A DNA stretch of 64,000 nucleotides, taken from Squalus acanthias. Lineage: Eukaryota. The notes under the pieces are model-generated. The model saw nothing but the letters and a program-made list of their open reading frames with translations, was not told the origin of the DNA and ran no database searches. Numbering within the stretch: position 1 is the first letter of the stretch; each line of letters opens with the position of its first letter. Shown here piece after piece: positions 2,108-58,067 of the stretch. The stretch covers positions 1,240,001 through 1,304,000 of the forward strand of contig JASTWF010000070.1 in NCBI GenBank assembly GCA_030390025.1, in the 5' to 3' direction. A program made the position numbers and the translations under genes.

Positions 2108-2461
2108 TCTTTACACTCAGGGCGGTCCCCGGTCCGAAGCTGTATTCCGAGTCCCACACAGCACAGTAATAGACGGCGGAGTCACCGGGCACCAGGGTTC
2201 CGATGGTCAGAATGTAAATATTACCGGAGGCGTCTCTGGAAGGTTGAAAACGGTTTGTGAAGCCGGTGCCTCGGAAGATATCATTATCTGTTTCATATCT
2301 TAACACCCACACCGGAGCTTCACCGGGTCGCTGTCGGTACCATTGCACATCCTTGCTGCCCACAGCCCCGTTCTGCATCGCACACTGTAACCGGGCGGTC
2401 TGACCCGCGGAGACAGGATCGGATATTGGGGACTGATTGAGGACGGGAGCCGCCAAGACAC
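2108..2461 (-). CDS. germline-joined VJ exon, Ig light chain type I, cluster 1 (CDR3 CAVWDSEYSF)
   Basis: AG acceptor at 2462-2463; open 354-nt exon with Cys23, Trp41, DSAVYYC running directly into FGPGTALSVK; GTAAGT donor; no RSS. Confidence 0.96.
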
Positions 2462-2612
2462 CTTAATTAAAAGAAAAAATCAACCCATTCAGAGACTTGG
2501 AGCAAATAGGACGTTAATGCGTCAATAAACACGGAGAGAAAACCGCCCGATTCTCGGTATTGAACCGATTTAGTTGCGGATAAACCGGTGATTAAAACCA
2601 TCCGTCTCTCAC

Positions 2613-2661
2613 CTGTTAAATGCATCAGCAGAGCCCACAGGAGATGCATCGCTGGAGCCAT
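2613..2661 (-). CDS. leader exon, cluster 1 (MAPAMHLLWALLMHLTG)
   Basis: 49-nt hydrophobic signal exon ending G|GTGAG, phase 1. Confidence 0.92.
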
Positions 2662-2778
2662 TTCCTCCGGAGAAGCGCCAACAGTCACCGCTGAAATTTC
2701 CGACTGAACCGTGCGCTGTTCCTGTAAACTCCGGGACCCGGTCCGGTTACAGTGTCTGCAAACCCGAGACTCCGGGTC

Positions 2779-2801
2779 TATTTATTACCCAGTATGCAAA
2801 T
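2779..2801 (-). promoter_or_regulatory. Ig V promoter: octamer ATTTGCAT + TAATAAATA box, cluster 1
   Basis: ATGCAAAT on + at 2794-2801 (light-chain orientation relative to the gene); TATA-like at 2779-2787. Confidence 0.9.
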
Positions 2802-2969
2802 GGCTGGGAGGGGCCAGGAAAAGGAAGGAGGCAGATTTTTAATTCGGGTAATTTTTAAATCTATTTGTGGCTAATTAAATTATTAAACTCTTAAACCTTT
2901 AATGAATATTTGGTCTGTGTTCTACCCCAGAAAAATGAGGGGCGGATTGTAGAGATACGGATCAGCTGA

Positions 2970-3740
2970 ACTCCTGCATCCTCTATAACATTGCATTTAA
3001 AGCCATGTGCGCTGCCATTACCCCTTTTCTTTCTCTTTCATTGTGCCAAAGCTCGATTGTACATTTTTCTTACTGGAAGGCTGAGTAAAGGCTAATAGGC
3101 TCATCTCCTGTTGGCGGGCTTCTCAATGAGGTGAGCAGCTTTTGATGCAGAGGTTATGATGGAGCTGTACAAAAGTCGAGTTAGGCCACAGCTGGAATAC
3201 TGTGTGCATTTCTGGTCGCCACACTTTCGGAAGGATGTGATTGCATTGGAGAGGGTGCAGAGGAGATTCAGCAGGATGTTACCTGGGCTGGAGCGTTAGC
3301 AGAGAGACTGGACAAGGTGGGGTTGTTTTCCTTGGAGCAGAGAAGGCTGAGGGGGACCTGATTGAGGTGTACAAAATTCTGAGGGGCATAGATAGGGTAG
3401 ATAGAAAGGAACTTTTCCCCTTAGTAGAGGGGTCAATAACGAGGGGGCATAGTTTCAAGGTAAGGGGCAGGAGGTTTACAGGGGATTTGAGGAAAAACTT
3501 TTTCACCCAGAGGGTGGTTGCAATCTGGAACTCACTGCCTGAAAGGGTGGTAGAGGCAGGAACCCTCACAACATGCAAGAAGCATTTAGATGAGCAATTG
3601 AAACGCCATAGCATACAAGGCTACGGACCAAGTACTGGAAAATGGGATTAGAAGAGACAGGGCTTGATGGCCGGCGCGGACACGACGGGCCGAAGGGCCA
3701 CTTTCTGTGCTGTATAACTCTATGACTCTGTGACTCTATG
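2970..3740 (+). mobile_element. cluster-1-specific insertion ending in a CR1 LINE 3' fragment
   Basis: Splits atcagctga|tgcacttcgg, which is contiguous in the other clusters; CR1 C-terminal motifs (GDLIEVYKI, FFTQRVV); (TATGACTC)n tail. Confidence 0.85.
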
Positions 3741-4756
3741 ATGCACTTCGGCCGGAATCGTTCTGATAACGTGCTGTTACTCTCTGATATACTGCATCAG
3801 ATTTTAAAATAATCTTTTCCCCCTAAAATACATATTTCATAATAGACTGACGTCCCTTTCTCTAAATCAGCAGCAAGACAACCCTGGATTTGTGAATCCC
3901 TTTAAAATTGGGGATTCAATTGACAAATATGATTTGGGATTCAGTCGGTAAATAAAATTCTGATGAGAATATTCCTGAGGCGGAGTAAAGAGCGAATTCG
4001 ATGAATGAGAAAGAGGGGAAGAAAGCGGCATTTTACATCCTGCACAGGATTAAAGAGAAGTTGTTCTTTTATAGTCTGAGTCACACCCTTTAAAACTCAG
4101 GAGGACAAATAAAATTCGGCACAATATTAATAAAATGACCCCTTGCCTTTAATTTGCTGCGGGTCCGATTAATGCGCGCAGTTCCCGTTTTAAACCCTGT
4201 TCCAGCTGAATTATTAAGCGGCGGGGTCAGTTGTTTCTGGGGCTCTGTGATGTTGAACATTTCCCCTGTTTGGAGTCAATCCCTAACTCCCCACACTGAG
4301 TCCTGGTTCATGTTTTTAAAAGTCAGATTGAAACTGGTTGGTGTCAGTTACTTGAGGGCGAAAGAAACATGCATTAAATTGTTAATAATTGGGTTGTCTC
4401 GAGGTATTAGCGTCAAATGAATAATATTATTGTTAAATAAATATCTGAACTGTGCATCTGTGAAGTTAGATATTCCCCTGTTTCTTAGAAAATCACACAG
4501 AGCGGCCGGAGGGATTCTCGCCCCCTGGAGCAGCCGGCACTGAATTCGGGCAGGGATTGGTTCTCACCTGGACAAGGGGCTTTTCGGTGAAGCCCAGGTG
4601 CTTGGTTCTGTTTCTCCGCTTGAACTGATCACTGATTCCTCTGGTCTGTTAGAATTATTAAAGGGGCTTTGGTGCTGTGACTGGAGCTGCTCGCTCAACG
4701 TTGCACAGATCCCCAGAGCTTTGTCACTGCTGACACTGACACGGCCGACTGGAGAA

Positions 4757-4810
4757 CCAATCATTGCAGAGCACTGGCCACACCGCGCACTGCACCTCGG
4801 GAACTGGAGT
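4757..4810 (-). promoter_or_regulatory. degenerate ZNF143/Staf-like motif + CCAAT, upstream of cluster 1
   Basis: ACTCCAGTTCCCGAGGTGCAGTGCG on minus, with a CCAAT box; paralog of better matches in clusters 3-5. Confidence 0.4.
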
Positions 4811-4849
4811 TTCACACTGGACAATCGCCAAGATCAGCGTGTCTATTGA

Positions 4850-5250
4850 CACCACTGTGTCAGCTCTACCTCTCCACGGCCTCCCTCAACCCCTCCACTC
4901 TCTCTAAATTGTCACACTGCTTGTCCGACATCCAGCACTGGATCAGCAGAAATTTCCTCCAACTAAATATTGGGAAGACCGAAGACATTGTCTTCGGTCC
5001 CGGTCGCAAATTCCGTTCCCTCGTCACTGACAGGCTCCCGCTCCCTGCCAACTTTCTGAGGCTGAACCAGAGTGTTCACTGCCTTGGTGTCATATTTGAC
5101 CTCGACGTGAGTTTCGGACCAGATATGGGTGACATCACTAATACCGACTACATCTCTCTCCTTGACAGCTGTCTGAGTCTGAAGCAGACTGTTTGCCACC
5201 TTGGTGTGATATGTGACCCCGAGATGAGATTCTGACCACATATCCATGGC
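4850..5250 (+). mobile_element. L2-clade LINE RT fragment
   Basis: FLQLNIGKTE..LGVIFD motifs, degenerate. Confidence 0.7.
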
Positions 5251-5262
5251 ATAACTCGTTTT

Positions 5263-8200
5263 AGATTCATAGAGTTATACAGCACAGAAAGAGGCCCTTC
5301 GGCCCATCGTGACCGCGCCGGCCATCAAGCCCTGTCTATTCTAATCCCATTTTCCAGCACTTGGTCAGTAGCCTTGTATGCTATGGCGTTTCAAGTGCTC
5401 ATCTAAATGATTCTCGAATGTTCTGAGGGTTCCTGCCTCTACCACCCTTTCAGGCAGTGAGTTCCAGATTCCAAACACCCTCTGGGTGATAACGTTTTTC
5501 CTCAAATCCCCTCTAAACCTCCTGCCCCTTACTTTGAAATTATGCCCCCTGGTTATTGACCCCTCTGCAAAGAGGAAAAGTTCCTTTCTATCTACACTAT
5601 CTATGCCCCTCCTAATTTTTTACATCTCAATCAGGTCCCCCCTCAGCCTTCTCTGCACTAAGGAAAACAACCCCAGCCTGTCCAGTCTCTCTTCATAGCT
5701 GAAGCGCTCCGGCCCAGGTAACATCCTGGTGAATCTCCTCTGCACCCTCTCCAATGCAATCACATCCCTCCTATAATGTGGCGACCAGAACTGCACACAG
5801 TATTCCAGCTGTGGCCTAACTAGCGTTTTGTACAGTTCCATCATAACCTCCCTGCTCTTATATTCTATGCCTCGGTCAAAGAAGGCAAGTATCCCATATG
5901 CCTTTTTAACCACCTTATTTACCTGTCCTGCTGCCTTCAGGGATCTATGTACATGCACACCAAGGTCCCTCTGATCCTCTGTCCTTCCTAGGGTCATACC
6001 ATTACATGTGTATTCCCTTGCCTTGTTAGTCCTCCCAAAATGCATCACCTCACACTTTTCAGGGTTAAATTCAATTTGCCACTGTTCTGCCCATCTAATC
6101 AACCCGTCTATATCGTCCTGTAGCCTGAGGCTTCCCTCCTCGCTAATTACCACTCCACCAACTTTCATGTCATCTGCGAACTTACTGATTGACATGAATC
6201 TTGTCATTCATGTGGAAATGACTTATGAAATAATACTGGGCGGCCTGCTGGTGGCGCTGTCCAGGGAGAGTATAAATATTCGGGCACGAGCCCAGCTTGC
6301 GCGGGACATTCTTAACAGGAAAAAGCGAAGGACACTACAGGACCTCCATGTTGTAAAACAGTTGATTAAAGCTTTGTTTAACGCTTAGACCAAGTGCCTA
6401 GTAGTTTTCTTACGTCACTGATCATACCTCCTACATTCATATCTAAATCATTAATGTACACTACAAACAGCAAAGGACCCAGCACGGACACAGGCTTCCA
6501 GTCACAAAAGCAACCTTCGACCATCACCCTCTGCCTCCTGCCACTAAGCCAATTTTGGATCCAATGTGCCAAATTGCCCTGGATCTCATGGACTCGTACC
6601 TTCTCAAACAGTCTCCCATGCAGGACTTTGTCAAAAGTCTTGCTGAAGTCCATGTAGACTATATCAACTGCACTACCCTCATCCACACACCTAGTCACCC
6701 CCTCGAAAAATTCAATCAAATCGGTTAGACATGATCTCCCCCTGACAAAACCATGCTGACTATCCTTGATTAATCCTTGCCTCTCCAAGTGGAGACTAAT
6801 TCTGTCTCTCAGAATTTTTTCCAATAATTTCCCTACCACTGATGTTAGGCTCACTGGCCTGCAATTCCCTGGTTTATCCCTATTACCCTTCTTGAATAAT
6901 GATACTACGTTAGTTGTTCTCCAGTCCTCTGGCACCTCCTCTGTGGCCAGCGAGGTACTGAAAATTTGTGTCAGAGCCCCTGCAATCTCCTCCCTTGCCT
7001 TACACAGCAGCCTGGGATACATCTCGTCAGGGCCTGGGGATTTATCCACTTTTAAGCCCGCTAAAACCGCTAGTACCTCCTCCCTCTCAATGCTAATTTG
7101 TTCAAGTATATCACAATCCCCCTGCCTGATTTATATGCCTACATCGTCCTTCTCCATAGTGAACACAGATGCAAAATATTCATTTAAAACCTCACCGACA
7201 TCTTCCGGCTCTACATTGCCACTTTGGTCCCTAATGGGTCCTACTCTTTCCCTGGTTATCCTCTTGCCCTTAATATACTTATAAAACACCTTGGGATTTT
7301 CCTTTATTTTGACCACCAGTGTTTATTCATGACCTCTCTTCGCTCTCCTTATTTATTTTTTAAGTAACCCCCTGCACTTTCTGTACTTCCACAGTTTTGA
7401 GTCCTTTGTATCTGCCAAAAGCCTCCCTTTTTACCTCATCCATTATTGTATATCCCTTGAAATCCAGGGTTCCCTGGGTTTGTTGGTCCCACACTTGACC
7501 TTTACGGGAACTTGTTGGCGTTGTACTCTCTCTATTTCCTTTCTGAAAGACTCCCACTGCTCTGATGTGGATTTTCCTACAAGTCGCAGATCCCAGTCAA
7601 CTTTGGCCAGATGTTGCCTTAACATATTAACATCGGCCTTCCCACAATTTAGAAACTTTATTTCCGGTCCATATTTGTCCATTTCCATGACTACCTTAAA
7701 TCTCACCGAATTATTGTCACTGTCACCAAAATGCTCTCCTACTGATACTTCTACCACTTGCCCGGCTACATTCCCTAGAATTAGGTCCAGTACCGCCCCC
7801 TCTCTTGTAGGACTTTCTACATGCTGGCTCAAAAAGCTCTCCTGGATGCACTTTAAGAATTCCGCACCCTCTAAGCCTTTCACATTCTGACTATCCCAGT
7901 TAAAATTGGGGAAGTTGAAATCCCCTACTATTAATATCCTATTATTTCTACACTTCTCTGAGATTTGCCTACATGTCTGTTCCTCTATCTCCCCCTGACG
8001 ATTTGAGGGCCTATAGTACACTCCCAGCTTGCCTCCTTTTAGTTTTTAAGTTCTACCCTTATACATCATTAGCGGAACCTGATAAGGTATCATCCCTCCT
8101 TACAGCAGCAATTGACTACTTGATTAATATTGCGACATCCCCATCTCTTTTACATGCCCCTCTGTCTTGCCTGAAGATTCTATACCCCGGAAAATTGAGC

Positions 8201-8865
8201 TACCAATCCTGCCCCTCCCTCAAACAAGTCTCTGTGATAGCAACAATATCATACACCCATATTTTCATCAACACCTTCAATTCATCTGCCTTACTCGCAA
8301 GACTCCTTGCATAAAAATAAATGCCTTCCAGCGTTGCCATACTCCCTTATGTCGTTACATATTTGCTCTGCCTTCCAGGCTGACTTGTTTTTTCCTCTAT
8401 ATTTGGCTGTGCATCACCCCCTACTATAGCTCCACTCCGTATCCCATCCCCTGCCAAGTTAGTTTAACGCCCCACCCGCCCCCCCCGCCCCCCAGCCCCC
8501 GTCAACAGTACTAGCAAACCTCCCCGCAAGGATGTTGGTCCCGTTCCGGTTCAGGTGCAACCCGTCCGACTTGTACAGGTCCCACCTTCCCCAGAAGCAG
8601 ACCCAGTGATCCAGGAAACTAAAGCCCTCCCTCCTGCACCAACTCTTAAGCCACGCATTCATCTGCTCTATCCGCCTATTCCTATACCCACTAGCACGTG
8701 GCACCGGGAGTAATCTAGAGATTACAACCTTTGAGTTCCTGCTTTTTACTCTGCTACCTAGCTCCCTAAATTCTTGTTGCAGGACCCAACCCTCTTTCTA
8801 TCCATGTCGTTCGTACCAATGTGAACCACGACCTCTGACTGTTCGCCCTCCCCCTTCAGAATGCC
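5263..8865 (-). mobile_element. CR1 LINE, near full length, decayed (ORF1 SGNH part, endonuclease, RT), interrupted by a solo LTR
   Basis: ORFs 8459-8704 (DGLHLN), 7443-8021 (GDFN), 6378-7049 (KSPGPD, QHGF), 5620-6207 (FADD); 3' tail at ~5263. Confidence 0.92.
6190..6417 (+). mobile_element. solo LTR (228 bp)
   Basis: TG...CA ends (TGAC...GTCA), 5-bp TSD CTGAT at 6185-6189 and 6418-6422, TATAAATA at 6271, ATTAAA at 6365; cleanly splits the CR1 RT. Confidence 0.85.
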
Positions 8866-8869
8866 CCAC

Positions 8870-9800: not shown

Positions 9801-10559
9801 CGATACTGTGTGGGAATTGTTCATTGTTCCTCTTTTGCTGCCCCGGGTGTAGTTCATAACCTATCCTCCAGTTCCTCGTTCACAGCCCAGGCCAAAGACC
9901 CTGACCATACGTTCATTATCTCTGATTTTCCGACCTGGATGATGTCCCCTTTCAATACTGGATTGAGCAATGGAAACAGACTGAGTTTCAGCAATCTCTT
10001 TAGTAATCTACTCCCAGAATGATGCGTGGTGCTCTTTAATGAATGGCGAGCAATGGATTAATTTCACTTTTGAAGCTAGGGCGCCAAAGTAACACCTGTG
10101 GTATCAGCACCGATCTACAGAAGCTTAAGGTATGGAAATCAAACAGCCACGTGATGTGTGGCGTCAGAATAATCCTTATCCTTCACTGTAATACATACTG
10201 GTGGATTCAAGAGATAGAGAGATTAATAGTCTTTATTTATCAATACACTTATAGAAACATAGCATCTCCAGTGCTATGAGAATGATTTCAATTGTACTCA
10301 CAAACGCAGCTATTTAATTATGCAAGGTATGCACGGTGCTCGTACGTAAATACGTTCATAGTACGTGTGATTATTACGTCCTCACGCAGGATTAATAGGT
10401 AAACTCGCCTCCCCCACCAGCCTTGCACATGCTCATTGGCGACATTCTCTGTCCATTGTTCTCTGGACATTTCACATGTATGATTAACCATATTCAGAAT
10501 CCTCACTTGCTGATCTAGGAGCACAGGAACAGGAGTAGATCCACAGTGGATTACCTCAC

Positions 10560-11745: not shown

Positions 11746-11806
11746 CAATGTCTCCTTAAGTGCTGAGTAAAGACGGACCACTTTAAGCTCGTGGCAGCAT
11801 TTCATG

Positions 11807-12122: not shown

Positions 12123-12451
12123 TCAGTCTGAACACGTGGAGGCGCTGATGGTCTTGAGAAGAGGCGAGCTCAGGGAGCCGTGGCTGACGCTGCAGGAATA
12201 GCTGGAGCCCTTGTTCCAGGCGGCGGCGGGGACTCTCAGGTAACTGCTCAGACTGTAGGTTTGATCGCTGTCCGGGGACACGGCGCCTGTCGTCACCCCG
12301 CTGTCTGTCTCTTGGCCATCCACGCTCCAGCGGAGCCGCACCAAGCCCGGCTTAAAGCGACTGACCAGGCAGGACAGAGTGGCCGATCCCGAGCCGATTT
12401 CTTCCGAGGAGGGAGGGAGGAGAAGAACCGAGGGGCTTCGATCCTCGCTGC
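12123..12451 (-). CDS. Ig light chain type I constant exon, cluster 2 (intact exon of a frameshifted gene)
   Basis: 329-nt exon, AG acceptor, ends STCSD*. Confidence 0.93.
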
Positions 12452-12788: not shown

Positions 12789-12830
<42 letters not shown>

Positions 12831-16063: not shown

Positions 16064-16416
16064 TCTTTATACTCAGGACGGTCCCCGGTCCGAAGATGTA
16101 TCCCGAGTCCCACACAGCACAGTAATAGACGGCGGAGTCACGGACACCAGGGTTCCGATGATCAGAATGTAACTGTTACCGGAGGCGTCTCTGGAAGGTT
16201 GAAAACGGTCTGTGAAGCCGGTGCCTCGGTATATATCATTATCTTTTTCATATGTTAGCACCCACACCGGAGCTTCCCCGGGTCGCTGTCGGTACCAGCT
16301 CACATTCTTACGGCCCACAGCCCCGTTCTCCATCGCACACTGTAACCGGGCGGTCTGACCCGCGGAGACAGGATCGGATATTGGGGACTGATTGAGGACG
16401 GGAGCCGCCAGGACAC
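16064..16416 (-). pseudogene. germline-joined VJ exon, cluster 2, 1-bp frameshift in FR3
   Basis: 353 nt versus 354 nt in the others; GTGTCCGTGAC replaces GTGCCCGGTGAC near 16140; CAVWDSGYIFGPGTVLSIK is out of frame. Confidence 0.88.
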
Positions 16417-16568: not shown

Positions 16569-16617
16569 CTGTTAAATGGATCAGCAGAGCCCACAGGAGA
16601 TGCATCGCTGGAGCCAT
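16569..16617 (-). CDS. leader exon, cluster 2
   Basis: MAPAMHLLWALLIHLTG, GTGAG donor. Confidence 0.88.
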
Positions 16618-26550: not shown

Positions 26551-26879
26551 TCAGTCGGAGCACGTGGAGGCGCTCATGGTCTTGAGAAGAGGCGAGCTCA
26601 GGGAGCCGTGGCTGACGCTGCAGGAGTAGCTGGAGCCCTTGTTCCAGGCGGCGGCGGGGACTCTCAGGTAACTGCTCAGGCTGTAGGTTTGATCGCTGTC
26701 CGGGGACACGGCGCCTGTCGTCACCCCGCTGTCTGTCTCTTGGCCATCCACGCTCCAGCGGAGCCGCACCAAGCCCGGCTTAAAGCGACTGACCAGGCAG
26801 GACAGAGTGGCCGATCCCGAGCCGATTTCTTCCGAGGAGGGAGGGAGGAGAAGCACCGAGGGGCTTCGATCCTCGCTGC
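26551..26879 (-). CDS. Ig light chain type I constant exon, cluster 3
   Basis: 329-nt open exon, AG acceptor, ends TCSD*. Confidence 0.95.
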
Positions 26880-29959: not shown

Positions 29960-30313
29960 TCTTTACACTCAGGACGGTCCCCGGTCCGAAGATGTATCCC
30001 GAGTCGTACACAGCACAGTAATAGACGGCGGAGTCACCGGGCACCAGGGTTCCGATGGTCAGAATGTAACTGTTACCGGAGGCGTCTCTGGAAGGTTGAA
30101 AGCGGTCTGTGAAGCCGGTGCCTCGGTATATATCATCATCTGTATCATGCTCTAGCACCCAGACCGGAGCTTCCCCGGGTCGCTGTTGGTACCAGTTCAC
30201 ATCATTGCTGCCCACAGCCCCGTTCTGCAGCGCACAGTGTAACCGGGCGGTCTGACCCGCGGAGACAGGATCGGATATTGGGGACTGATTGAGGACGGGA
30301 GCCGCCAGGACAC
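29960..30313 (-). CDS. germline-joined VJ exon, cluster 3 (CDR3 CAVYDSGYIF)
   Basis: open 354-nt exon, canonical splice sites, V fused to FGPGTVLSVK. Confidence 0.96.
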
Positions 30314-30465: not shown

Positions 30466-30514
30466 CTGTTAAATGGATCAGCAGAACCAACAGGAGATGC
30501 ATCGCTGTAGCCAT
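30466..30514 (-). CDS. leader exon, cluster 3 (MATAMHLLLVLLIHLTG)
   Basis: 49 nt, GTGAG donor. Confidence 0.92.
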
Positions 30515-35410: not shown

Positions 35411-38400
35411 CGAGAGCGGCGGCGGACCTGCGGGGAACCAGGCGGGGGCTGCGGCGAGGTTTAAGAGGCGGCAGAGACCTGGTAGGCCTCAGAGCGGCGG
35501 CGGACCTGCGGGGAACCAGTCGGCGGCGGCGGCGAGGTTTAACAGGCGGCAGAGACCAGGTGGGTTTACCAATCTCCGAGCTCGGAGGGAGAGAAGTAAA
35601 AAGTAATCGAAGTGTGACGTCACCAGAAAGCAGGTACGTGATTGGTTGGTGAGTATTTCTCTCGTTTTAAACTTAAACTCTGTGGTTTATAGTTTCTAAG
35701 CTCTCTGTGGTGTATCGGGGACTGTTGGTAAACCAGGGCCCTTAAGTATATCATTTAACTGTAGTGCAATTGGTGGGATTGATTTGTTTTAATTTAATTT
35801 GAATTAATTAAAGGGTAAGTCATGGCAGGAGAGCTCGGCCCCGTGGTATGCTCCTCCTGTGCTATTTCGGAAATCAGGGTCACTTCCGGTGTCCTTGACA
35901 TCCATGTGTGCGGGAAGTGTATCCAGCTACAGCTACTGACAGACCGCATTACGGCGCTGGAGCTGCGATTGGATGCGTATTGGAGCATTCACGATGCTGA
36001 GAACCTCGTGAATAGCACGTTTAGCGAGTTGGTAACACCGCAGGCAAAGGGTGTACAGGCAGGAAGTAAATGGGTGACCACCAGGCAGAGTAAGAGGTAC
36101 AGGCAGGTAGTGCAGGGGTCCCCTGTGGACATCCCCCTCTCAAATAGATATACCACTTTGAATACTATTGGGGGGGATGACGTATCAGGGGAAGGCAGCA
36201 GCAGCCAACTTCCTGGCACCATGGGTGGCTCTGCTGCACAGGCTGGGAGGAAAAAGAGTGGAAGAGCTATAGTGATAGGGGACTCAATTGTAAGGGGAAT
36301 AGATAGGCATTTCTGCAGCCGCACCGAGACTCCAGGATGGTGTGTTGCCTCCCTGGTGCAAAGGTCAAGGACGTCTCGGAGCGGCTACAGAACATTTTGG
36401 AGGGGGAGGGCGTACAGTCAGCTGTCGTGGTGCACATAGGTACCAACGATATAGGTAAAAAAGGTGATGAGGTCCTAAAAGCAGAATATAGGGAGTTAGG
36501 AGGTAAATTAAAAAATAGGACCTCAAAGGTAGTAATCTCAGGATTGCTACAAGTGCCACGTGCTAGTCAGAGTAGAAATAGGAGGATATTTCAAATGAAT
36601 ACGTGGCTAGAGGAATGGTGCAAGGGGGAGGGATTCAAATTCCTGGGACATTGGAACCGGTTCTGTGGGAGGTGGGACCAGTACAAACCGGACGGTCTGC
36701 ACCTGGGCAGGGCCGGATCCGCTGTCCTAGGGGGAGTGTTTGCTAGTGCTGTTGGGGAGGGTTTAAACTGAAGTGGCAGGGGGTTGGGCACCGGAGCAGG
36801 GAAACAGAGGAAAGCGTGTCAGGAAGGGACAGAAGGTATGGAGTAAAAGGTAAAGTGTTAAAAAAGGAAAAAGCAGGAAGTAAGTGTCACAAAACATATT
36901 TGAAAGTTCTTTATCTGAATGCACGTAGCATTCGTAACAAAATGGGCGAGTTAACGGCACAAATAACTACGTATGGGTATGATCTTGTGGCCATTACAGA
37001 AACATGGCTGCAGGATGACAACGACTGGGACTAAATATGCCAGGGTATTTAACAATCAGGAAGGACAGGCAGGAAGGAAGGGGTGGTGGGGTGGCTATGT
37101 TAATAAAGGAAGGAATCACTGTAATACAGAGAAATTATATTGGGTCAAAGGATCAGGATAATGAAACCGTTTGGGTGGAGATAAGGAATAACAAGGGAAA
37201 AAAAAACACTAGTGGGAGTAGTATATAGGCCTCCTAATAGTTGCAACTCTGCTGGAAGAAGTATTAATCAGGAAATAGTTGGTGCATGTAATAAGGGACC
37301 AGCTATAATTATGGGGGATTTTAACTATCATATTAACTGGACAAATAAAATTGGGCAGGGCAGCCTTGAGGAAGAGTTTTTTTGAGTGTATTAGGGATGG
37401 ATTTCTTGAGCAGTATGTAACTGATCCTACAAGGGGGCAAGCAACCTTGGACCTGGTCCTGTGTAATGAGTCAGGATTAATTAATAATGTCCTAGTTAAG
37501 GATACCCTTGGAATGAGTGACCATAACATGGTTGAATTCCATATCCAATTAGAGGGTGAGAAGGTTGGTTCTCAAATAAGCGTACTGAGCTTGAATAAAG
37601 GAGACTATGATGGTATGAGAGCGGAATTAATTAATGTGGACTGGGAAAATAGATTAAAGGGTAAGACTTAACATGAGCAGTGGTGTTCATTTAAGGAGAT
37701 ATTTTACAACTTTCAAAAGAAATATATTCCACTGAGGAAAAAAGGGTGTAAAAGAAATGACAGCCATCCGTGGCTAAGTAAAGAAATTAAGGATAGTATC
37801 CGACTGAAAACAAGGACATATAAGGTAGCCAAACTTAATGGGAGGATAGAGGATTGGGAAGTCTTCAAAAGACAGCAAAAAGTAACTAAAGGATTGATTA
37901 AGAAAGGGAAGATAGATTATGAAAATAAATTAGCAAAAAATATAAAAGCAGATAGCAAGAGTTTCTATAGTTATATAAAAAGAAAAAGGGTGGCTAAGGC
38001 AAACGTAGGTCCCTTAGAGGATGAGACCGGGAAATTAATGGTGGGAAACATGGAGATGGCAAAAATGCTGAACAAATATTTTGTTTCAGTCTTTACGGTA
38101 GAGGACACTAAGAATATCCCAACACTGGACAAACAGGGGGCTCTAGGGGGGGAGGAGCTGAATATGATTAAAATCACTAAGGAATTGGTACTCAGTAAAA
38201 TAATGAGACTCAAGGCGGATAAATCCCCTGGACCTGATGGCTTACATCCTAGGGTCTTGAGGGAAGTGGCAGTAGGGATTCTGGATGCTTTGGTTATTAT
38301 TTTCCAAAATTCCCTGGACTCAGCAAAGGTCCCGGCAGATTGGAAAACTGCTAATGTAACACCCTTATTTAAAAAGGGTAGTAGGCAGAAGGCTGGAAAT

Positions 38401-39905
38401 TATAGAGCAGTTAGCCTAACATCTGTGGTGGGTAAAATTTTGGAGTCTATTATTAAGGAGGCAGTAACAGAACATTTAGATAAACATAATTTAATAGGAC
38501 AAAGTCAGCATGGCTTTATGAAGGGGAAGTCATGTCTGACAAATTTGCTTGAGTTCTTTGAGGACATAATGTACAGGGTGGATAAAGGGGAACCAGTGGA
38601 CGTAGTGTACTTAGACTTCCAGAAGGCATTCGACAAGGTGCCACATAAAAGATTATTGCTCAAGATAAAAAAATACTGGATTGGGGGTAATATTCTGGCA
38701 TGGGTGGAGGATTGGTTATCTAACAGGAAGCAGAGAGTTGGGATAAATGGTTCATTCTCAGACTGGCAACCAGTAGCCAGTGGTGTTCCGCAGGGGTCGG
38801 TGCTGGGTCCCCAACTCTTTACAATCTATATTAACTATTTGGAGGAGGGGACCGAGTGTAACATATCAAAGTTTGCAGATGCTACAAAGATGGGAGGGAA
38901 AGTAGAAAGTAAGGAGGACATAAAAAACCTACAAGGGGATATAGACAGGCTGGGTGAGTGGTCGGAGATTTGGCAGATGCAATGCAATATTGGAAAATGT
39001 GACGTTATGCACTTTGGCAGGAAAAATCAGAGAGCAAGTAATTATGTTAATAGCGAGAAACTGGAAAGTACTGCAGTACAAAGGGATCTGGGGGTCCTAG
39101 TGCAAGAAAATCAAAAAGTTAGTATGCAGGTGCAGCAGTTGATCAAGAAGACCAACGGAATGTTGGCTTTTATTGCTAGGGGGATAGATTATAAAAACAG
39201 GGAGGTATTGCTGCAGTTATATAAGGTATTGGTGAGACCGCACCTGGAATACTGCGTACAGTTTTGGTGTCCATACTTAAGAAAAGACATACTTGCTCTC
39301 GAGGCAGTACAAAGAAGGTTCACTCGGTTAATCCCGGGGATGAGGGGGTGGACATATGAGGAGAGGTTGAGTAGATTGGGACTCTACTCATTGGAGTTCA
39401 GAAGAATGAGAGGCGATCTTATTGAAACATATAAGATTGTGAAGGGGCTTGATCGGGTGGATGCGGTAAGGATGTTCCCAAGGATGGGTGAAACTAGAAC
39501 TAGGGGGCATAATCTTAGAATAAGGGGCTGCTCTTTCAAAACTGAGATGAGGAGAAACATCTTCACTCAGAGGGTAGTAGGTCTGTGGAATTTGCTGCCC
39601 CAGGAAGCTGTGGAAGCTACATCATTAAATAAATTTAAAACAGATATAGATAGTTTCCTGGAGGTAAAGGGAATTAGTGGTTACGGTGAGCGGGCAGGAA
39701 ATTGGACATGAGGCTGAGTCCGGATCGGTCAGGGCCCTGTGGGTGGCAGAGCGGGCCCAGGGGCTGAGTAGCCGGGTCCTGCTCCTACTTCTTGTGTTCT
39801 TTAGATTTGAGGTTAGGATCAGATCAGCCATGATCATATTGAATGGCGGAGCAGGCTCGAGGGGCCGATTGTCCTACTCCTGCTCCTATTTCTTATTTCC
39901 TTCTT
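35411..39905 (+). mobile_element. full-length but inactivated CR1 LINE
   Basis: GC-rich 5'UTR with a 78-bp tandem repeat; ORF1 35822-36771 (CxxC..CxxC, SGNH GDS/GTND/DGLH, frameshifted); broken endonuclease; RT ORF 37894-39711 with FADD changed to FADA. Confidence 0.95.
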
Positions 39906-41359
39906 AAGTATAATCAGTGACTTGGACTCCACAGCTGTCTGTGGTAGAGAATTCCACAGGTTCATCACCCTCGGAGTGAAGAAATTTCTCCTCATCTCAG
40001 TCCTAAATGTCCTACCCCGTATCCTGAGACTGTGACCCCTCGTTCAAGACCTCCCAGCCAGGGTAAACATCCTCCCTGCATCCAGTCTGTCTAGCCCTGT
40101 CAGAATTTTATACGTTTCAATGAGATCCCCTCTCATTCTTCTAAACTCTAGTGAATACAGGCCTACTCGACCCAATCTCTTCTCACACGACAGTCCTGCC
40201 ATCCCAGGAATCAGTCTGGTGAACCTTCGCTGCACTCCCTCTATGGCAAGTATATCCTTTCTTAGGCAAGGAGACCAAAACTGCACACAGTACTCCAGGT
40301 GTGGTCTCACCAAGGCCCTGTATAACTGTAGTAAGACATCCTTGTTCCTTTACTCAAATCCTCTTGCAATGAAGGCCAACATACCATTTCCCTCTCTAAC
40401 TGCTTGCTGCACCTGCATGTTTGCTTTCAGTTACTGGTGTACAAGGACATCCAGGTCCCTTTGTACATCAACATTTCCCAATCTATCACCATTTAAATGA
40501 TACTCTGCCTTTCTGTTTTTCCTACCGAAGTGCATAACTTCACATTTATCCACCTGCATCTGCCATGTATTTGCCCACTCACTCAACTTGTCTAAATCGC
40601 CTTGAAGCCTCTTTGCATCCTCCTCACAACTCACAATCCCACCTAGTTTCGTGTCGTCAGCATACTTGGAAATATTACATTTGATTCCCTCATCCAAATC
40701 ATTGATATATATATTGTGAATAGCTAGGCCCCAAGCACTGATCCCTGCGGTACCCCACTAGTCACTGCCTGCCACCCCAAAAAAGACCCATTTATTCCTA
40801 CTCTCTGATTCCTCTCTGTTAACCAATTTTCTATCCATGCCAGTATATTACCCCTAATCCCTCGTGCTTTAATTCTGCACACATTAGCTCTTATGTGAGA
40901 CTCTATCAAAGGCCTTCTGAAAATCCAAATACACCACATCCACTGGTTCTCCCTTATCTATTCTACCAGTTACATCCTCAAAAACCTGCAATAGAATATC
41001 CCTTTCATAAATCCATGTTGACTTTGTCTAATCCCATTGATATTTTCTAAGTGTCCTGTTATCACATCCTTTATAATAGACTCTAGCATTTTCCCTACTA
41101 ATGATGTTAGGCTAACCGATCTGTAGTTCCCGGTTTTCTCTCTCCCTTCTTTTTTAAATAGTGGGGTTACATTTGCCACCCCCCCAATCTGCAGGAGCTG
41201 TTCCATAATCTATAGAATTTTGGAAGATGACAAACAACGCATCCACTATTTCCATGGCTACCTCTTTTAGCACTCTGGGATGCAAATTATCAGCCCCTGG
41301 AGATTTATCAGCTTTCAGTCCCATTAATTTCCCCAGCGCCATTATTTTACGAATATTAA

Positions 41360-43591: not shown

Positions 43592-43640
43592 ATGGCTCCA
43601 GCGATGCATCTCCTGTGGACTCTGCTGATCCATTTAACAG
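43592..43640 (+). CDS. leader exon, cluster 4 (MAPAMHLLWTLLIHLTG)
   Basis: 49 nt, GTGAG donor. Confidence 0.92.
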
Positions 43641-43792: not shown

Positions 43793-44146
43793 GTGTCCTG
43801 GCGGCTCCCGTCCTCAATCAGTCCCCAATATCCGATCCTGTCTCCGCGGGTCAGACCGCCCGGTTACAGTGTGTGATGGAGAACGGGGCTGTGGGAAGCA
43901 ATCACGTGAACTGGTACCGACAGCGACCCGGGGAAACTCCGGTGTGGGTGCTGGAGCATCAAACAGATAATACTATATACAGAGGCACCGGCTTCACAGA
44001 CCGTTTTCAACCTTCCAGAGACGCCTCCGGTAACAGTTACATTCTGACCATCGGAACCCTGGTGCCCGGTGACTCCGCCGTCTATTACTGTGCTGTGTGG
44101 GAGTTTGGAATCATCTTCGGACCGGGGACCGCCCTGAGTGTAAAGA
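43793..44146 (+). CDS. germline-joined VJ exon, cluster 4 (CDR3 CAVWEFGIIF)
   Basis: open 354-nt exon, canonical splice sites, FGPGTALSVK. Confidence 0.96.
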
Positions 44147-47100
44147 GTAAGTGACTCTGTCATTCTATCATTCACATTGTTTCAATTATTATTAATTGAC
44201 AGTCGCTTTCATACTCGGGCGCCAGAGAAATCTCCATTCAGTGAATTTTGATGTTGGATTTATTTAGAACGAAAAAATGTTAAGTTGATCAGCATTGGAA
44301 TTGTTGAAGAGCCTCGGGGAATAATACTGCGCTGAAATGAAGTTTCACACCATTTCCTGCTCCCATTCAATGGGGGAGATGATGAGAAGTGTTCTTTTTA
44401 CGCAGCGAGTTGCTGTGATCTGGAATGCGCTGCCTGAAAGGGCGCTGGGAGCAGATTCAATAGTAACTTTCAAAAGTGAATTGGATAAATACTTGAAAAG
44501 GATAAATGCAGAGCTTTGGGGAAAGAGCAGGGGAGTGGAAATAATTGGAGAGCTCTATTCAAAGAGCCTGCAGAGGCATGATGGTCTGAATGTCCTCACA
44601 GGAGCATTGATTGATAAAATAGTGACATAGGAACAGGAGGAGGCCATTCAGCCACTCGAGCCTGTGTGAAAAAGTGCTTCCCTCCTCAATGGATGGGCTC
44701 TAATTTTAATTGAACTCCCCTGGTACTTGATTCCCCCACCGGAGGAAATCGTTTCTCTGTGTTTACCCGATCGAAACCTTTTTCGAATTTTAAACACCTC
44801 GATTAGTTCAACCCTGAATCTTCTAAACTCAAAGGAATACAAACCAAGTTTATGCAAACCGTCCTCGTAATTTAACCCTCTAAGCCCCGGTATCATTCGG
44901 GTGTAGCAAGAGACAGAGAGAGAGAGAGAGAGGGAAAGTTGTGAGCGACACTGTGAAGTTCTGACAGTGGACACTGAATATGTCAGTGTGTTACTCTGAG
45001 ACTTTAAGGGAGAAAATTGCAGGGTTATAGGGAAAGAGCAGCGGAGTGGGACTAATTGGAGAACTCTTTCAAAGAGCCGGCACAGGCACCATGGTCCGAA
45101 TGGCCTCCTTCCGTGCTGTATGACTCTATGCTGCTCCTTACTTCTTCTCTTTGTGTATGTGGAATTATTCCTATTGTCCAGAGTCGGCACCGTCCGATTT
45201 TAGAAAGATTGCCCGGAGCCGGTAGGGCGAACCCCGGGGGAATTCCAACCCATTTACCGTCATTTGCAACTTTCAATGTTGCTGCTGGTTTTATTCCTGT
45301 GGCGTATTGTACCCCTGACCGCAGCCGTCGGGTGTCCGGCTCTGGGCTGGGAGAGAGAGAGGACCATCCCGAGACCCGCTGTCCCAGCACACAACCGGTT
45401 GGAGCGACTCCCTGTCGCCAGCAACACCGGTACTAGTCGGGATTGTATTCGTTTGACGGGATCGGTTTTATTCTGAATTTCCTGTTCCGATATTTAATCT
45501 GTCTGAGCTCATTATTCGCAATCTCCCCGCTGTTTATAGAGCAGGACCGGCGCTTTACCATGGAGCGGCGCAGTGACAATTACTGACCAGCCCCGTGTGT
45601 GTGAGTGAGACTGGGTGATGCTTGTTGAAGGGAACTTTCTCTCCATCTCATTCTCTCGCTGCTGACCCTCTCCCGTCCCCCAGGCTGTGTCTGCTGACTC
45701 TCCCTGTCCAGTGTCCCCCCGGGGATAGCGCCGATTCTCCTGGGTTGATCTGTCGGTTCCGCTACCGCCCAGTGTTGAACGGATCGCTCCGGGACCGGCG
45801 AGACTGACCTGATCCCGAGAGAGAAATCAGTTCACCCGCGCGGGGAAGAATCCTTGCTTGCCTCTGTAGCGAGAATCTTTTACAACCCTTGTTCCCCCTT
45901 TACTCGAAATATTAAAACGTGAAAACCCTTCATCAAAGAGAAGGTTGAGGGGTGGCCGAATAGAGGTTTTTAAAATGATGAAAGGTTTTGATAGAGTAGA
46001 CACAGAGAGAATGATTCCACTTCTGGGGAAGAGAATGACTAGGAACGATCAATAAAAGATAGTCACCAAGAAATCCAATAGGAAATTCAGGAGAAACTTC
46101 TTTACCCAGAGTGTGTTGAGAATGTGGAACTCGCTACCACAGGGAGTGGTTGATGCGAATAGTATAGATGCACTTATGGGGAGGCTAGATAAGCGCATGA
46201 GGGAGAAGGGAATAGAGGGTTATGCTGATAGATTTAGATGTGGAAATAAGGGAGGAGGCTCGAGTGGATCATAAACACCGGCATGGACTGGTTGGGCCGA
46301 ATGAACTGTGTCTGTGCTGTATATTCTGTGTAATTCTATGAAAAGCATTTACAACATTGTTAGACAGTCACTACATTAATTGTACAATGTCCTCTCTTTG
46401 TTCAGTGAGCTCTTCAATACCCGGTAACAGACCCGACTCAATTATTATCTCCGCAACATTTAAAGCGAATCAGTTTCTAACACGCAATCTAAAAAAAATC
46501 TGAATTGTAAAAAAAAATTCCGGAGTCTTATAGAATAATTCAGTAGAGAAGGAGGCCATTCGGCCCATCCTGCCTGTGGCGGGTCTTTGAAAGGGCTCCA
46601 TCAGTTTGAGATATCAGAACATAATGTGGATTCTCGGTGAAAAGCGGGTCACAGCTCCGTGACTCGACCACTTTAATGTTAACACAACCCATTTTAAGAC
46701 AATCAAACGCTTTATTATATTGAAGTAAAACGGGAAAGAACTGCAATTATAGAAAATCAAATAAAAACAGAAAATGCTGGGAATACACGGCCGGTCAATC
46801 AGTGTCTGTAACGGGAACAGACAGGTTAGTGCGGTTCCGAGGGTGTAACCTGCACCTGAACTGGTCAGTTACTGATCTTTCCATCTCACACATGCTGACT
46901 GACCCGGTCTGTATTTCTGCATTTTCTGTGCTATTTTACAAGAAAGAAAGGAAGATTTGTATTTCTACAGCTACTTTCACGACATCAGGACGTCCCAAAG
47001 CGCTTTACAGCCAATGAAGTACTTTTGAACCAAGTCACTGTTGTAATGTAGGGAAAAGAATTGGCAGAGGAGCAGAGGAATTAGAGATTTCAGAATTTAT

Positions 47101-47240: not shown

Positions 47241-47569
47241 GCAGCGAGAATCGAAGCCCCTCGGTTCTTCTCCTCCCTCCCTCCTCGGAAGAAATCGGCT
47301 GGGGATCGGCCACTCTGTCCTGCCTGGTCAGTCGCTTCAAGCCGGGCTTGGTACGGCTCCGCTGGAGCGTGGATGGCCAAGAGACAGACAGCGGGGTGAC
47401 GACAGGCGCCGTGTCCCCGGAGAGCGATCAAACCTACAGCCTGAGCAGTTACCTGAGAGTCCCCGCCGCCGCCTGGAACAAGGGCTTCAGCTATTCCTGC
47501 AGCGTCAGCCACGGCTCCCTGAGCTCGCCTCTTCTCAAGACCATCAGCGCCTCCTCGTGTTCCGACTGA
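47241..47569 (+). CDS. Ig light chain type I constant exon, cluster 4
   Basis: 329-nt open exon ending SSCSD*. Confidence 0.95.
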
Positions 47570-53500: not shown

Positions 53501-56500
53501 TTTGAGGATGTAACTGGTAAAATAGATAAGGGAGAACCAGTGGATGTGGTGTATTTGGCCTTACAAAAGGCTTTTGATAAGGTCCCGCATAAGAGATTAG
53601 CGTGTAAAGTTAAGGCACATGGGATTGGGGGCAAGGTATTGACTTGGATAGAGAACTGGTTGGCAGACAGAAAGCAAAGAGTTGGAATAAACGGGTCTTT
53701 TTCCGAGTGGCAGGCAGTGACTAGTGTGGTACCGCAGGGATCGGTCCTTGGACCCCAGCTATTCACAATATATATTAATGATCTAGTCAAGGGAACTAGA
53801 TGTAATATCTCCAAGTTTGCAGACGACACAAAACTGGGTGGGCGTGGTGCTGCGAGGAGGATGCTGAGAAACTCCAGGATGCTTTGCACAGGTTGGGTGA
53901 TTGGGCAGAAACGTGGCAGATGCAATATAACGTGGATAAATGCGAGGTTATCCACTTTGGTGTCAAAAACAGAAAGGCAGATTATTATCTGAATGGCAAT
54001 AGATTGGGAGAAGGGGAAGTGCAACGAGACCTGGGTGTCCTTGTGCACCAGTCGCTGAAGGTAAGCATGCAGGTGCAGCAGGTGGTTAAGAAGGCAAATG
54101 GTATGTTGGCCTTCATAGCGAGAGGGTTTGAGTACAGGAACAAGGATGTCTTGCTGCAGTTGTGCAGGGCCTTGGTGAGACCACACATTGAATACTGTGT
54201 GCACTGTTGGTCGCCTTATCTGAGGAAGGATGTTCTTGCCATGGAAGTAGTTCAGCGAATATTCCCAAGGCTGATACCTGGGATGGCAGGAATGACGTAT
54301 GAAGAGAGATTGGGTCGATTTGACTTATACTCGCTGGAGTTTAGTAGAATGAGAGGGGATCTCATTGAAATGTATAAAATTCTGACAGGACAGGAGAAAC
54401 TAGATGCAGGAAGGATGTTCCCGATGGTCGGGGAGTCCAGAGCCAGGGGTCACAGTCTAAGGATAAGGGATAAGCCATTTAGGACATAAATGTGGAGGAA
54501 TTTCTTCACCCAGAGAGTGGTGAACCTGTGGAATTCTCTGCCACAGAAGGCAGTAGAGGCCACTTCATTAAATAGATTCAAGAAGGAGTTGGATATATTT
54601 CTTAAGGCTAAAGGGATCAAGGGATATGTGGAGAAAGCAGGGACAGGGTACTGAATTTGAATGATCAGCCATGATCACATTGAATGGCGGAGCTTGCCAG
54701 AGGGGCCGAATGGCCTACTCCTGCTCCTCTCTTCTATGATTCTATGATTCTATGTAAGTAGATGCGATGGTTTCAGCTCAATTATGGCATTAGACAGTAT
54801 GATAAATACTGTAAAAAAAATCCTAATAGCTCCTCTGGGTGACTCCTAAATATATAACAGTAACATTTTACGCACATAATTTATATTCTCTAAGTATCCT
54901 CGACTCACTACATTATGCTGGAGAAATCAGCCAGCTTTTATCGGGCGAAGTTGTTTAGTTCCGGTCATGAGTTCTGTTTGCTGTAGTTTGTACATGCTCT
55001 TTTTAAATAGACCCTGTAGACTGTTTGCTGTCATGCGCTGCTTAAATAGACTTGGTTTGCTGAATAAATAGAGTTTGTTTGCTGTAAGTTAAACTGTTCT
55101 ATTTGAATCCTGACTAAAGTCCCGCCCCACCTCCAACAACAACAACAACAACTTGTATTCATATAGCACCTTTAATGTAGTAAAACGTCCAAAGTTACTT
55201 CACAGGAGTGTTATGAAAAACTTTGACACCGAGCCACATAAGGAGATATTAAGGCCGAAGACCAAAAACTTGATCAAAGAGGCAGGTTTTAAGGAGTGTC
55301 TTAAAGGCGGAAAGAGAGGTAGAGAAGCAGAGAGGTGCAGCGAGGGAAGTCCAGAGCTTAGGGCCTAGCCAGCTGAAAGCACTGCCACAAATGGTGGAGT
55401 GAGGCGCAAGAGGCCAGAATTGGAGGAACGCAGATATTTCGGAATGTTGCAGGGCTGGAGGAGATGACAGAGACAGGGAGGGTTGAGGCCATGGACGGAT
55501 TTGAAGAAAAGAATGATCTTATAAAAATTGAGGTGTTATGTAACTGGGAGGCAATGTAGGTCAGCGAGCACAGGGGTGAAGGGACTTCGTGCATGTTTTG
55601 CATAGTCTCAAGTTTACGGAGGGTAGAAAGTGGGAGGCCGGCCAGGCGTGTGTTGGTAAAATAAAGACAAGAGGTAAAAACGTTGTGCATGAGGGTTTCA
55701 GCAGATGATGAGCTGTGGCACGGTAGAGTCGGGCGATGTTATTGAGGTGGAAATAGGCTGTCTTAGTTATTGCAGATATGACATCATGGTTGCCAACAGC
55801 CTGTATCAGACTCAGACAGTTCCCAGGGAGAGGGGTGGAGTCGGTGGTGAGGGAATGGAATTTTTGGCGGAGACCGAAGAGAATGGCTTCGGTCTTCTCA
55901 AAATTTCGTTGGAGGAAATTTCTGCTCATTCAGTGCTGGATGTCGGACAAGCAGTGTGAAAATTTGGAGACAGTGATGGAGTCGAGAGAGGCCGTGGTGA
56001 GGTAGAGCTGACACAGTGGTGTCAATAGACACGCTGATCTTATGCATTGCCCAATATGGAACTACAGTTCCCAAGATGCAGTGCGCGGTGTGGCCAGTGC
56101 TCTGCAATGAATGGTTCACCAGTCGCCCGTGTCGGTGTGAGCAGTGACAAAGCTTTGGGCACCTGTGCAAGGTTGAGCGAGCAGCTCCAGTCAAAGCACC
56201 AAAGCCCCTTTAATAATTCTAACAGACCAGAGAAATCAGTGATCAGTTCAAGCGCAGAAACAGAACCAAGCACCTGGGCTTCACCGAAAAACCCCTTGTC
56301 CAGGTGAGAACCAATCCCTGCCCGAATTCAGTGCCGGCTACTCCAGAGGACGAGAATCCCTCAATCCGCTCTGCCTGTTTTACTAAGGAACAGGGGAATA
56401 CCTAACTTCACAGTTACACATTTCAGATATTTAATAAACAAAAAATATTATTCCTTTGACGCTAATATCTCGAGACGACCCAATTATTAACAATTTGATG

Positions 56501-57373
56501 CATGTTTCTGTCGCCCTCAAGTAACTGACACTAACCAGTTTCAATCTGACTTTTAAAAACATGAACCAAGACCCATTGTGGGGAGTTAGGGATTGACTCC
56601 AAACAGGGGAAATGTTCAACATCACAGAGCCCGAGGAACAACTGACCCCGCCGCTTAATAATTCAACTGGAACAGGGTTTAAAACGGGAAATGCGCGCGT
56701 TAATCGGACCCGCAGGAAATTAAAGGCAAGCTGTTAATTTATTAATATTGCGCCGAGTTTTATTTGCGCCCCTGAGTTTTAAAGGGGGTGACTCTTTATA
56801 ATGGAACAACTTCTCTTCAATCCGGGGCAGGCTGTAAAATGGCGATTTCTTCCCCTCTTTCTCATTCCTCTAATTAACTCTTTACTCCGCCTCATGAATA
56901 TTCTCATCAGAATTGTATTTACAGACTGAATCCCAAATCATATTTGTCAATTGAAACCCCAATTTTAAAGGGATTGACAAATCCAGGGTTGCCTTGCTTC
57001 TGATTTAGAGAAAGGGACGTCAGTCTATTATGAAATATGTATTTTATGGGGAAAAGATTACTTTAAAATCTGATGCAGTATATCGGAGAGTAACAGCACG
57101 TTATCAGAACGATTCCAGCCGAAGTGCATCAGCTGAATCGTATCTCTACAATCCGCCCCTCATTTTTCTGGGGTAGAACACAGACTAATTATTCATTAAA
57201 CGCAAAAATCTTCGGAATCTTGGAACCTTCTCCTAACAGAGACTCCAATTGGAGTTTAAACAGTTTTATAAATTAAATGTTTAAGATTTTAATAATTTAG
57301 TCAGGCGCAAATAGATTTAAAAAATACCCGAATTGAAAATCTGCCTCCTTCCTTTTCCTGGCCCCTCCCAAAC

Positions 57374-57396
57374 ATTTGCATACCGGGTAATAAATA
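57374..57396 (+). promoter_or_regulatory. octamer + TATA-like V promoter, cluster 5
   Basis: ATTTGCAT at 57374-57381. Confidence 0.9.
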
Positions 57397-57513
57397 GACC
57401 CGGAGTCTCGGGTTTGCAGACACTGTAACCGGACCGGGTCCCGGAGTTTACAGGAACAGCGCACGGTTCAGTCGGAAATTTGAGCGGTGGCTTTTGGCGC
57501 TTCTCCGGAGGAA

Positions 57514-57562
57514 ATGGCTCCAGCGATGCATCTCCTGTGGGCTCTGCTGATCCATTTAACAG
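57514..57562 (+). CDS. leader exon, cluster 5
   Basis: MAPAMHLLWALLIHLTG, GTGAG donor. Confidence 0.92.
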
Positions 57563-57713
57563 GTGAGACACGGATGGTTTTAGTCACGGGTTTACCCGCA
57601 ACAAAGTCGTTTAAATACCAAGAATCGGGCGGTTTTCTCTCCGTTATATTGTCGCATTAACGTCCTATTTGCTCCAAGTCTCTGAATGGTTTGATTTTTT
57701 TCTTTTATTGAAG

Positions 57714-58067
57714 GTGTCCTGGCGGCTCCCGTCCTCAATCAGTCCCCAATATCCGATCCTGTCTCCGCGGGTCAGACCGCCCGGTTACAGTGTGCGATGG
57801 AGAACGGGGCTGTGGGCAGTAAGGATGTGAGCTGGTACCGACAGCGACCCGGTGAAGCTCCAGTGCGGGTGCTCGATCACAGTGCCGGTGGCACCATCTA
57901 CCGAGGCACCGGCTTCACACTCCGTTTTCAATCTTCCAGAGAAGCCTCCGGTAACAGTTACATTCTGACCATCGGAACCCTGGTGCCCGGTGACTCCGCC
58001 GTCTATTACTGTGCTGTGTGGGACTCAGGAATCATCTTCGGACCGGGGAACGTCCTGATTATAAAGA
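57714..58067 (+). CDS. germline-joined VJ exon, cluster 5 (CDR3 CAVWDSGIIF)
   Basis: open 354-nt exon; J motif FGPGN. Confidence 0.93.

Follow-up and report, generated by a model that had tools for sequence, protein, structure and literature searches.

Possible retention of old CDR2 variants in five germline-joined light-chain genes of the shark Squalus acanthias

In antibody light-chain genes whose variable (V) and joining (J) segments are already fused in the germline, recombination adds no variation, and the germline loops are the whole primary repertoire. How do the loops of neighbouring genes of this kind come to differ? The question is raised by a 64,000-nucleotide stretch of Squalus acanthias DNA (contig JASTWF010000070.1, positions 1,240,001 to 1,304,000; hereafter, the window), which contains five germline-joined V-J-constant (V-J-C) clusters (c1 to c5) that we assign to the sigma-2 (type I) class of immunoglobulin (Ig) light chains. 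The original prediction, made from this sequence, described near-identity of framework region 1 (FR1) in all copies and divergence confined to the complementarity-determining regions (CDRs), much of it as tandem substitutions, and explained it by strong positive selection or by an AID-like process leaving marks in the germline. Its descriptive core was confirmed: the CDR1 and CDR2 peptides that it gave are present in the five joined VJ exons, FR1 holds one variable base in codons 4–26 (in codon 25), and all six of the codon pairs that it named as tandem changes occur. As for the cause, we favour, with moderate confidence, a history in which old CDR2 variants were kept by selection while the remainder of each cluster was made uniform by gene conversion and duplication. 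The variants are probably older than the split between sharks and rays, dated near 306 million years ago (252–387) (PMC3692497).

A CDR2 genealogy deeper than, and discordant with, that of its flanks

The non-coding DNA of the clusters yields the tree ((c2,c5),(c3,c4),c1), with supports of 100 and 97. The sisters c2 and c5 are separated by a J-C intron distance of 3 per cent, yet 20 of the 27 bases of CDR2 codons 53–61 differ between them, compared with at most 7 differences in non-coding windows of 27 bases. Their CDR2 islands, residues 53–62 in our own numbering (anchored on conserved C, W and R), read LTYEKDNDIY in c2 (16229..16258, minus strand) and LDHSAGGTIY in c5 (57872..57901, plus strand). 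Under the best hypermutation fit on the intron tree, at least 20 c2–c5 differences in CDR2 arose in 0 of 5000 simulations. The tree of CDR2 itself, ((c1,c2),(c4,c5),c3), has long branches and an omega of 0.4, and is preferred to the intron tree with tandem substitutions (Akaike information criterion of 284 versus 316). Informative sites discordant with the non-coding tree make up 6 of 10 in the VJ exons versus 14 of 140 in non-coding DNA (p=0.0004). The genealogy of the CDR2 segment is deeper than that of its flanks and discordant with it.

Pairwise p-distances are 0.20–0.33 in the CDRs, 0.05–0.06 in the frameworks and 0.075 in non-coding DNA. Divergence is, however, not confined to the CDRs: the proportion of synonymous differences (pS) is 0.21–0.23 in FR2, the proportion of nonsynonymous differences (pN) is 0.09 in FR4, and one of the named pairs, GAC/CTC, sits in FR3 (codon 69). 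The CDR differences had also been called mainly replacements, which site numbers alone explain; per site, pN does not exceed pS with Kabat borders (0.194 versus 0.205), with IMGT borders (0.208 versus 0.271) or with the borders of the original prediction (0.322 versus 0.361). The ratio of nonsynonymous to synonymous rates (dN/dS, Nei–Gojobori), the check suggested along with the claim of strong positive selection, speaks against that claim, being 0.72, 0.94 and 0.85 for IMGT, Kabat and the predicted borders, respectively. It is this low because synonymous divergence in the CDRs is raised too (pS of 0.21–0.36, versus 0.089 for the C exon, approximately 0.09 for introns and, over all non-coding DNA, 0.075). 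Elsewhere dN/dS is 0.7–1.05 (frameworks) and 0.23 (C exon); CDR3 alone, with few sites, gives 2.2–2.6.

In codon models with branch lengths fixed from non-coding DNA, the C exon has a rate of 0.99, the synonymous rate of FR1, FR3 and FR4 together is 0.15 of the intron rate (p=0.0002), and CDR2 reaches a rate of approximately 14 with an omega of 0.42. Because rates differ by region in this manner, we read CDR2 as having a longer history than its flanks, and the outer frameworks as being younger or more constrained. An added rate is required for all CDRs together (p=0.009) and for CDR2 (p<0.0001), and once a local rate is allowed, CDR omega is indistinguishable from 1 (p=0.75). CDR1 and CDR3 together need no extra rate; since an omega of approximately 2.3 fits them at the intron rate, mild diversifying selection on these two loops is possible. 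Decay of CpG sites was rejected as a cause of CDR divergence, as such sites are not more variable than others.

CDR2 peptides shared with batoids

The window's clusters were compared with light-chain-sized rows from 70 matches and with cluster members, leaving out 13 multi-domain gene models and, in CDR2 tests, three rows with CDR2 insertions. At the protein level, all five CDR2 islands are nearer to a batoid than to any paralog in the window: against 31 distinct batoid CDR2s, the best matches of c1 to c5 are 8, 10, 8, 9 and 6 of 10 residues, and those against window paralogs are 7, 7, 7, 7 and 5. The batoid matches sum to 41, compared with 34.2 in column shuffles, none of which (0 of 5000) reached the observed value. 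The sharing holds in shuffles of blocks of 2, 3–4 and 5 residues (p up to 0.008) and upon omission of c2 (p=0.015). The c2 island matches Leucoraja erinacea XP_055487193.1 at all 10 residues, that of c4 (LEHQTDNTIY; 43951..43980, plus strand) a Hypanus sabinus protein at 9, and that of c1 (LRYETDNDIF; 2274..2303, minus strand) Mobula and Stegostoma proteins at 8; the c3 island (LEHDTDDDIY; 30126..30155, minus strand) is identical to that of Squalus acanthias AES93007.1. A second exact match, IRHDTDGDIF, is found between the Squalus cDNA AES93005.1 and a Mobula protein, and galeomorphs share CDR2 with batoids independently of the window (p=0.0007).

The frameworks group by lineage. Their identity between window and batoids averages 0.70–0.75 (approximately 73 per cent for c2 and the little skate protein that it matches in CDR2), and dogfish rows form one clade (support 88). 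By framework, 64.6 of 66 rows have their nearest neighbour in their own group (squalomorph, galeomorph or batoid), compared with 59.4 rows when CDR1 is used and 43.5 when CDR2 is used. In CDR1, sharing with batoids does not rise above shuffles (p=0.97). Among the rows listed, those contigs from two close relatives whose codon 56 is non-acidic have a codon 57 ending in CC, a likeness to c5 that we regard as tentative.

We hypothesize that an ancestral elasmobranch carried several sigma-2 CDR2 types, from which the shared peptides would descend. Duplication and gene conversion would have homogenised frameworks and introns within each lineage, and selection would have removed conversions that erased CDR2 differences, since genes joined in the germline lack any further source of primary diversity. 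Short tracts may also have carried CDR2 and CDR3 patches between neighbours such as c4 and c5. CDR1 and CDR3 would have diverged modestly, CDR1 within the dogfish lineage.

Alternatively, fast diversifying selection within a narrow set of residues, together with conversion in which a divergent dogfish paralog beyond the window was the donor, could have produced CDR2 variants younger than the split, and their likeness to batoids would be convergence. Nonsynonymous divergence in the CDRs at 2–3 times the intron rate (omega of 2.9 with the synonymous rate fixed), the few residues used per CDR2 column in the 66 rows and the CDR replacement bias reported in skate type I genes (PMC2192082) all fit such a course of events. 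Selection on amino acids does not, however, raise synonymous divergence, for which the added-rate tests call. Furthermore, two exact ten-residue matches cross superorders, the sharing survived block shuffles, and CDR1, likewise exposed, is not shared. We consider convergence the main alternative, possible but less likely than retention.

The eight-residue joined CDR3 AVWDSGYI (e.g. 44092–44115 and 16095–16118) resembles AAWDSGYI of Mobula and the CDR3s of other stingray proteins, with equal length and near-equal sequence. Should the matching ray genes also prove to be joined, the fusion in the germline might be older than the shark–ray split, opposite to the view that joining arose after it (PMC2193156).

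Tandem substitutions and AID hotspots

The emphasis of the original prediction on tandem changes holds for raw counts: 48–63 per cent of pairwise mismatches lie in runs in the CDRs, compared with 25 per cent in non-coding DNA. At equal density, though, the observed-to-expected ratio from within-block shuffles is lower in the CDRs (1.08–1.24) than in non-coding DNA (1.57), a comparison in which copy pairs are not independent. The non-sisters c4 and c5 have two of the six examples, TAC/ATC and GAT/ACT (as GAT/AC-), in common, and AGC/CAA is bridged by AAC in c3 and c4. At residue 106, F, a single-step link between Y and I, is present in ray and skate proteins. Three doublets (codons 69, 102 and 104) are private to one copy. 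The CDR3 of c4 (residues 100–107; 44092..44115, plus strand) carries the TCG/TTT doublet as well as the TAC/ATC change common to c5. In the introns and flanks of all five clusters, adjacent substitutions are 1.35–1.66-fold above chance, and transition bias in the non-coding DNA is low (232 transitions versus 329 transversions).

Fits of the CDRs to the intron tree favour a tandem term (0.35, versus a non-coding background of 0.04; p=0.002); some tandem-term optimisations remained at their start values, and those fits are approximate. When each segment is fitted on its own tree, the term vanishes for CDR2 and CDR1 (p=0.30 and p=0.39, respectively) and persists for CDR3 (reached in 0 of 152 null simulations). 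Old variants would differ at many adjacent bases, synonymous ones included, and such long separation would lead both to a low dN/dS and to apparent tandems when the variants are fitted to the shallow tree of the introns. In simulations along the deep tree with no additional tandems, 124 of 300 data sets gave a spurious tandem signal when analysed on the intron tree. Outside codons 53–63, doublets account for 8 of 45 changed bases, compared with 42 of 380 in distal non-coding DNA (Fisher test; p=0.22) and 114 of 273 in shark T-cell receptor (TCR) hypermutation (p=0.002); the Fisher tests used a hand count of 46 events, for which the script count is 45. Site-specific residue preference alone was rejected: star-tree mutation-selection simulations gave a p-distance of 0.30 (observed, 0.38) and matched the tandem likelihood-ratio test (LRT) in 1 of 60 cases, and an unequal deep tree does better.

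Could AID-type hypermutation in germ cells, or the writing back of mutated sequence, have marked these genes? The raised CDR synonymous rate, the CDR tandem rate on the intron tree and the CDR3 tandem excess on its own tree would be in keeping with this, as would published RAG activity in shark germ cells (PMC2193156); our literature search found no paper on AID in germ cells or oocytes with Ig variable genes. Hotspots give a divided answer. In the CDRs, G/C sites are variable in 4 of 12 cases within WRCH/DGYW and in 14 of 39 elsewhere (ratio of 0.93), and VJ singletons of c2 to c5 show no WRCH bias (2/22 versus 16/152). In the frameworks, the corresponding counts are 6 of 18 and 12 of 126 (p=0.012), with C>T in 5 of the 6. 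Enrichment is 2.1-fold over the whole V and 1.4-fold in non-coding DNA (interaction, p=0.22).

Polarised non-coding singletons of c2 to c5 also show a WRCH excess from the leader–V intron to 1.5 kb past J (17/85 versus 37/476), the expected hypermutation zone, which was set after a first hint in the data; outside it, the counts are 39/325 versus 151/1234 (zone interaction, p=0.004). WRCH cytosines in the middle of the J-C intron (44892..46142, plus strand, in c4 coordinates) carry an excess of changes that we cannot explain. The best 1-kb window there gives 11/51 versus 14/320 (p=0.0001, uncorrected for the 29 overlapping windows), and WRCH ranks 2 among 144 control motifs. The excess peaks 1.3–2.5 kb after the ATG, off V, and is absent over V and the first part of the intron (7/53 versus 36/326 at +50 to +1050). 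Where it occurs, there is no transition bias (C>T in 7 of 17), and doublets are rarer than outside (3/81 versus 42/380).

The AID-like process that had been proposed is thus not supported in the CDRs by hotspots, nor by doublets outside CDR2, and what remains of it are the CDR3 tandems and the WRCH excess in frameworks and mid-intron. Since it also leaves the skate-shared peptides unexplained, germline AID is weakened as an explanation, and we judge it quite improbable; the WRCH excess keeps it open at low odds. A combined process, in which AID in shark germ cells left WRCH-biased and doublet changes throughout the transcribed light-chain clusters and started short conversion tracts moving CDR2 cassettes 250–300 million years old between clusters, would be akin to the RAG activity reported there, as germline diversification by somatic machinery. 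It is speculative, and we judge it about equally improbable.

Several observations weigh against the retention of old CDR2 variants. The genealogy is based on only the five copies in the window, the island borders (53–62) were picked after the alignment had been viewed, and homoplasy at deep sites also raises discordance. Sharing across species is seen at the protein level only, over 10 residues; the shuffles ignore long-range structural coupling, and convergence on a few workable loops could yield the sharing. With halves kept, the count of exact matches alone is not significant (p=0.21, window only), and sharing of the window's CDR2s (residues 53–62) with galeomorphs alone is borderline (p=0.078). 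The observed tandem LRT was reached in only 26 of 300 deep-tree simulations, and neither the CDR3 doublets nor the WRCH excess are explained by old CDR2 variants.

The five clusters and their known counterparts

Each cluster consists of an octamer, a leader exon, a fused 354-base VJ exon, a J-C intron and a single C exon. On the minus strand are c1 (VJ exon 2108..2461, leader 2613–2661, octamer 2794–2801, C exon 235–563), c2 (16064..16416, leader 16569–16617, C exon 12123–12451) and c3 (29960..30313, leader 30466–30514, C exon 26551–26879); on the plus strand are c4 (43793..44146, octamer 43452, leader 43592–43640, C exon 47241–47569) and c5 (57714..58067, octamer 57374, leader 57514–57562, C exon 61684–62012). 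V and J are fused in genomic DNA, with leader and J-C introns retained and no recombination signal sequence found, c1 included (searched as heptamer–nonamer pairs at 12 or 23 spacing, +/-1, with at most 2 nonamer mismatches). The clusters encode V-set and C1-set domains, with IMGT CDR1s of 8 residues (30–37) and CDR2s of 7 (55–61), lengths typical of sigma-2 (PMC5985310). Together with pairwise identity to named type I chains (68 per cent in V and 75 per cent in C to Leucoraja AAA87170.1), these lengths identify the clusters as sigma-2. The top-matching proteins are Squalus acanthias light chains (V, 85 per cent; C, 96–99 per cent); no relative was found in metagenome contigs, and no close one in the PDB.

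The VJ frame is open in four copies, including c1, and shifted in c2 by a 1-base FR3 deletion near 16140. Because none of the four sequencing runs compared shows the c2 letters at 16144 and 16161, we read this frameshift as an allele or an assembly error. These letters, and a gap of 139 Ns at 836–974 in the J-C intron of c1 (crossed by that intron's length of 1544 bases and by the c1 V-to-C link), might suggest that the differences between copies arose during assembly or reflect lymphocyte DNA carrying somatic mutations. That is very improbable: every copy has its own flanks, 3–10 per cent apart; the c2 CDR2 is found in a DNA run at a depth of 70 (in run X1, a 113-base contig spans it with one differing base); and the c3 CDR2 equals that of a Squalus cDNA. 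Loose ends of contigs in run X10 bear a c3-type CDR2 and join leader to V and J to C, so the sigma-2 family is transcribed, X10 being judged RNA-like from these spliced ends alone.

An inverted duplication of approximately 22 kb (92.8 per cent identity) relates the c2/c3 arm (10167–31950) to the c5/c4 arm (42135–64000); such arms could favour gene conversion. The spacer between them is rich in reverse-transcriptase fragments of long interspersed nuclear elements (LINEs), and contains an open stretch of 679 codons (37672–39708, plus strand) that is ORF2-like and presumably a fragment of a CR1-like LINE ORF2. A minus-strand octamer at 41280, after which no V exon was found, is probably due to chance.

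Joined loci of this type and CDR-focused germline diversity are already known (PMC2192082; PMC5192425; PMC4279169). In the little skate, joined type I genes were described in 1995 as differing mostly in their CDRs, with many replacements (Anderson et al., PMC2192082). Those clusters (sigma-2, sigma-cart, NS5), which are expressed, resemble the window in their joined VJ-C structure and CDR-focused differences. The window differs in coming from a shark, in a CDR dN/dS that does not exceed 1 per site and in CDR2s that match those of batoids; the paper also mentions CDR2 and gene conversion, and may cover part of the present pattern. We found no account of CDR2s shared between sharks and rays, or of this pattern under conversion or concerted evolution, in literature outside subscription papers. 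Among Squalus acanthias cDNAs AES93000–AES93010, C is 96–99 per cent identical to the window, CDR3 likewise has 8 residues, and one has the c3 CDR2, but none of ten equals a window copy. AES93007.1 combines the c3 CDR2 with c4-like CDR1 and CDR3, which suggests more clusters or mosaics. Shark somatic hypermutation likewise produces multi-base changes concentrated in CDRs, but with 38–51 per cent of mutated bases in tandem (in the TCR) and a 4.3-fold enrichment of G:C changes in DGYW/WRCH (PMC5931798, PMC8781386), compared with 8/45 outside CDR2 and a CDR ratio of 0.93 in the window. A deep local genealogy can make paralogs look as though they had mutated in tandem.

If CDR2s have indeed been kept in dogfish, skates and rays since their split, the loops probably contact either ligands or a heavy-chain partner that have themselves been conserved, and would form an innate-like, testable repertoire that was retained while frameworks turned over. 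Trans-species polymorphism is a feature of the peptide-binding regions of the major histocompatibility complex (MHC). Gene conversion has been described in protocadherin clusters and in shark UrIg2 (PMC12227049). As in the MHC and protocadherins, a binding segment in the window would retain old variants while neighbouring sequence is homogenised; unlike in those systems, the variants reside in paralogous antibody genes, and the segment spans only approximately 30 bases.

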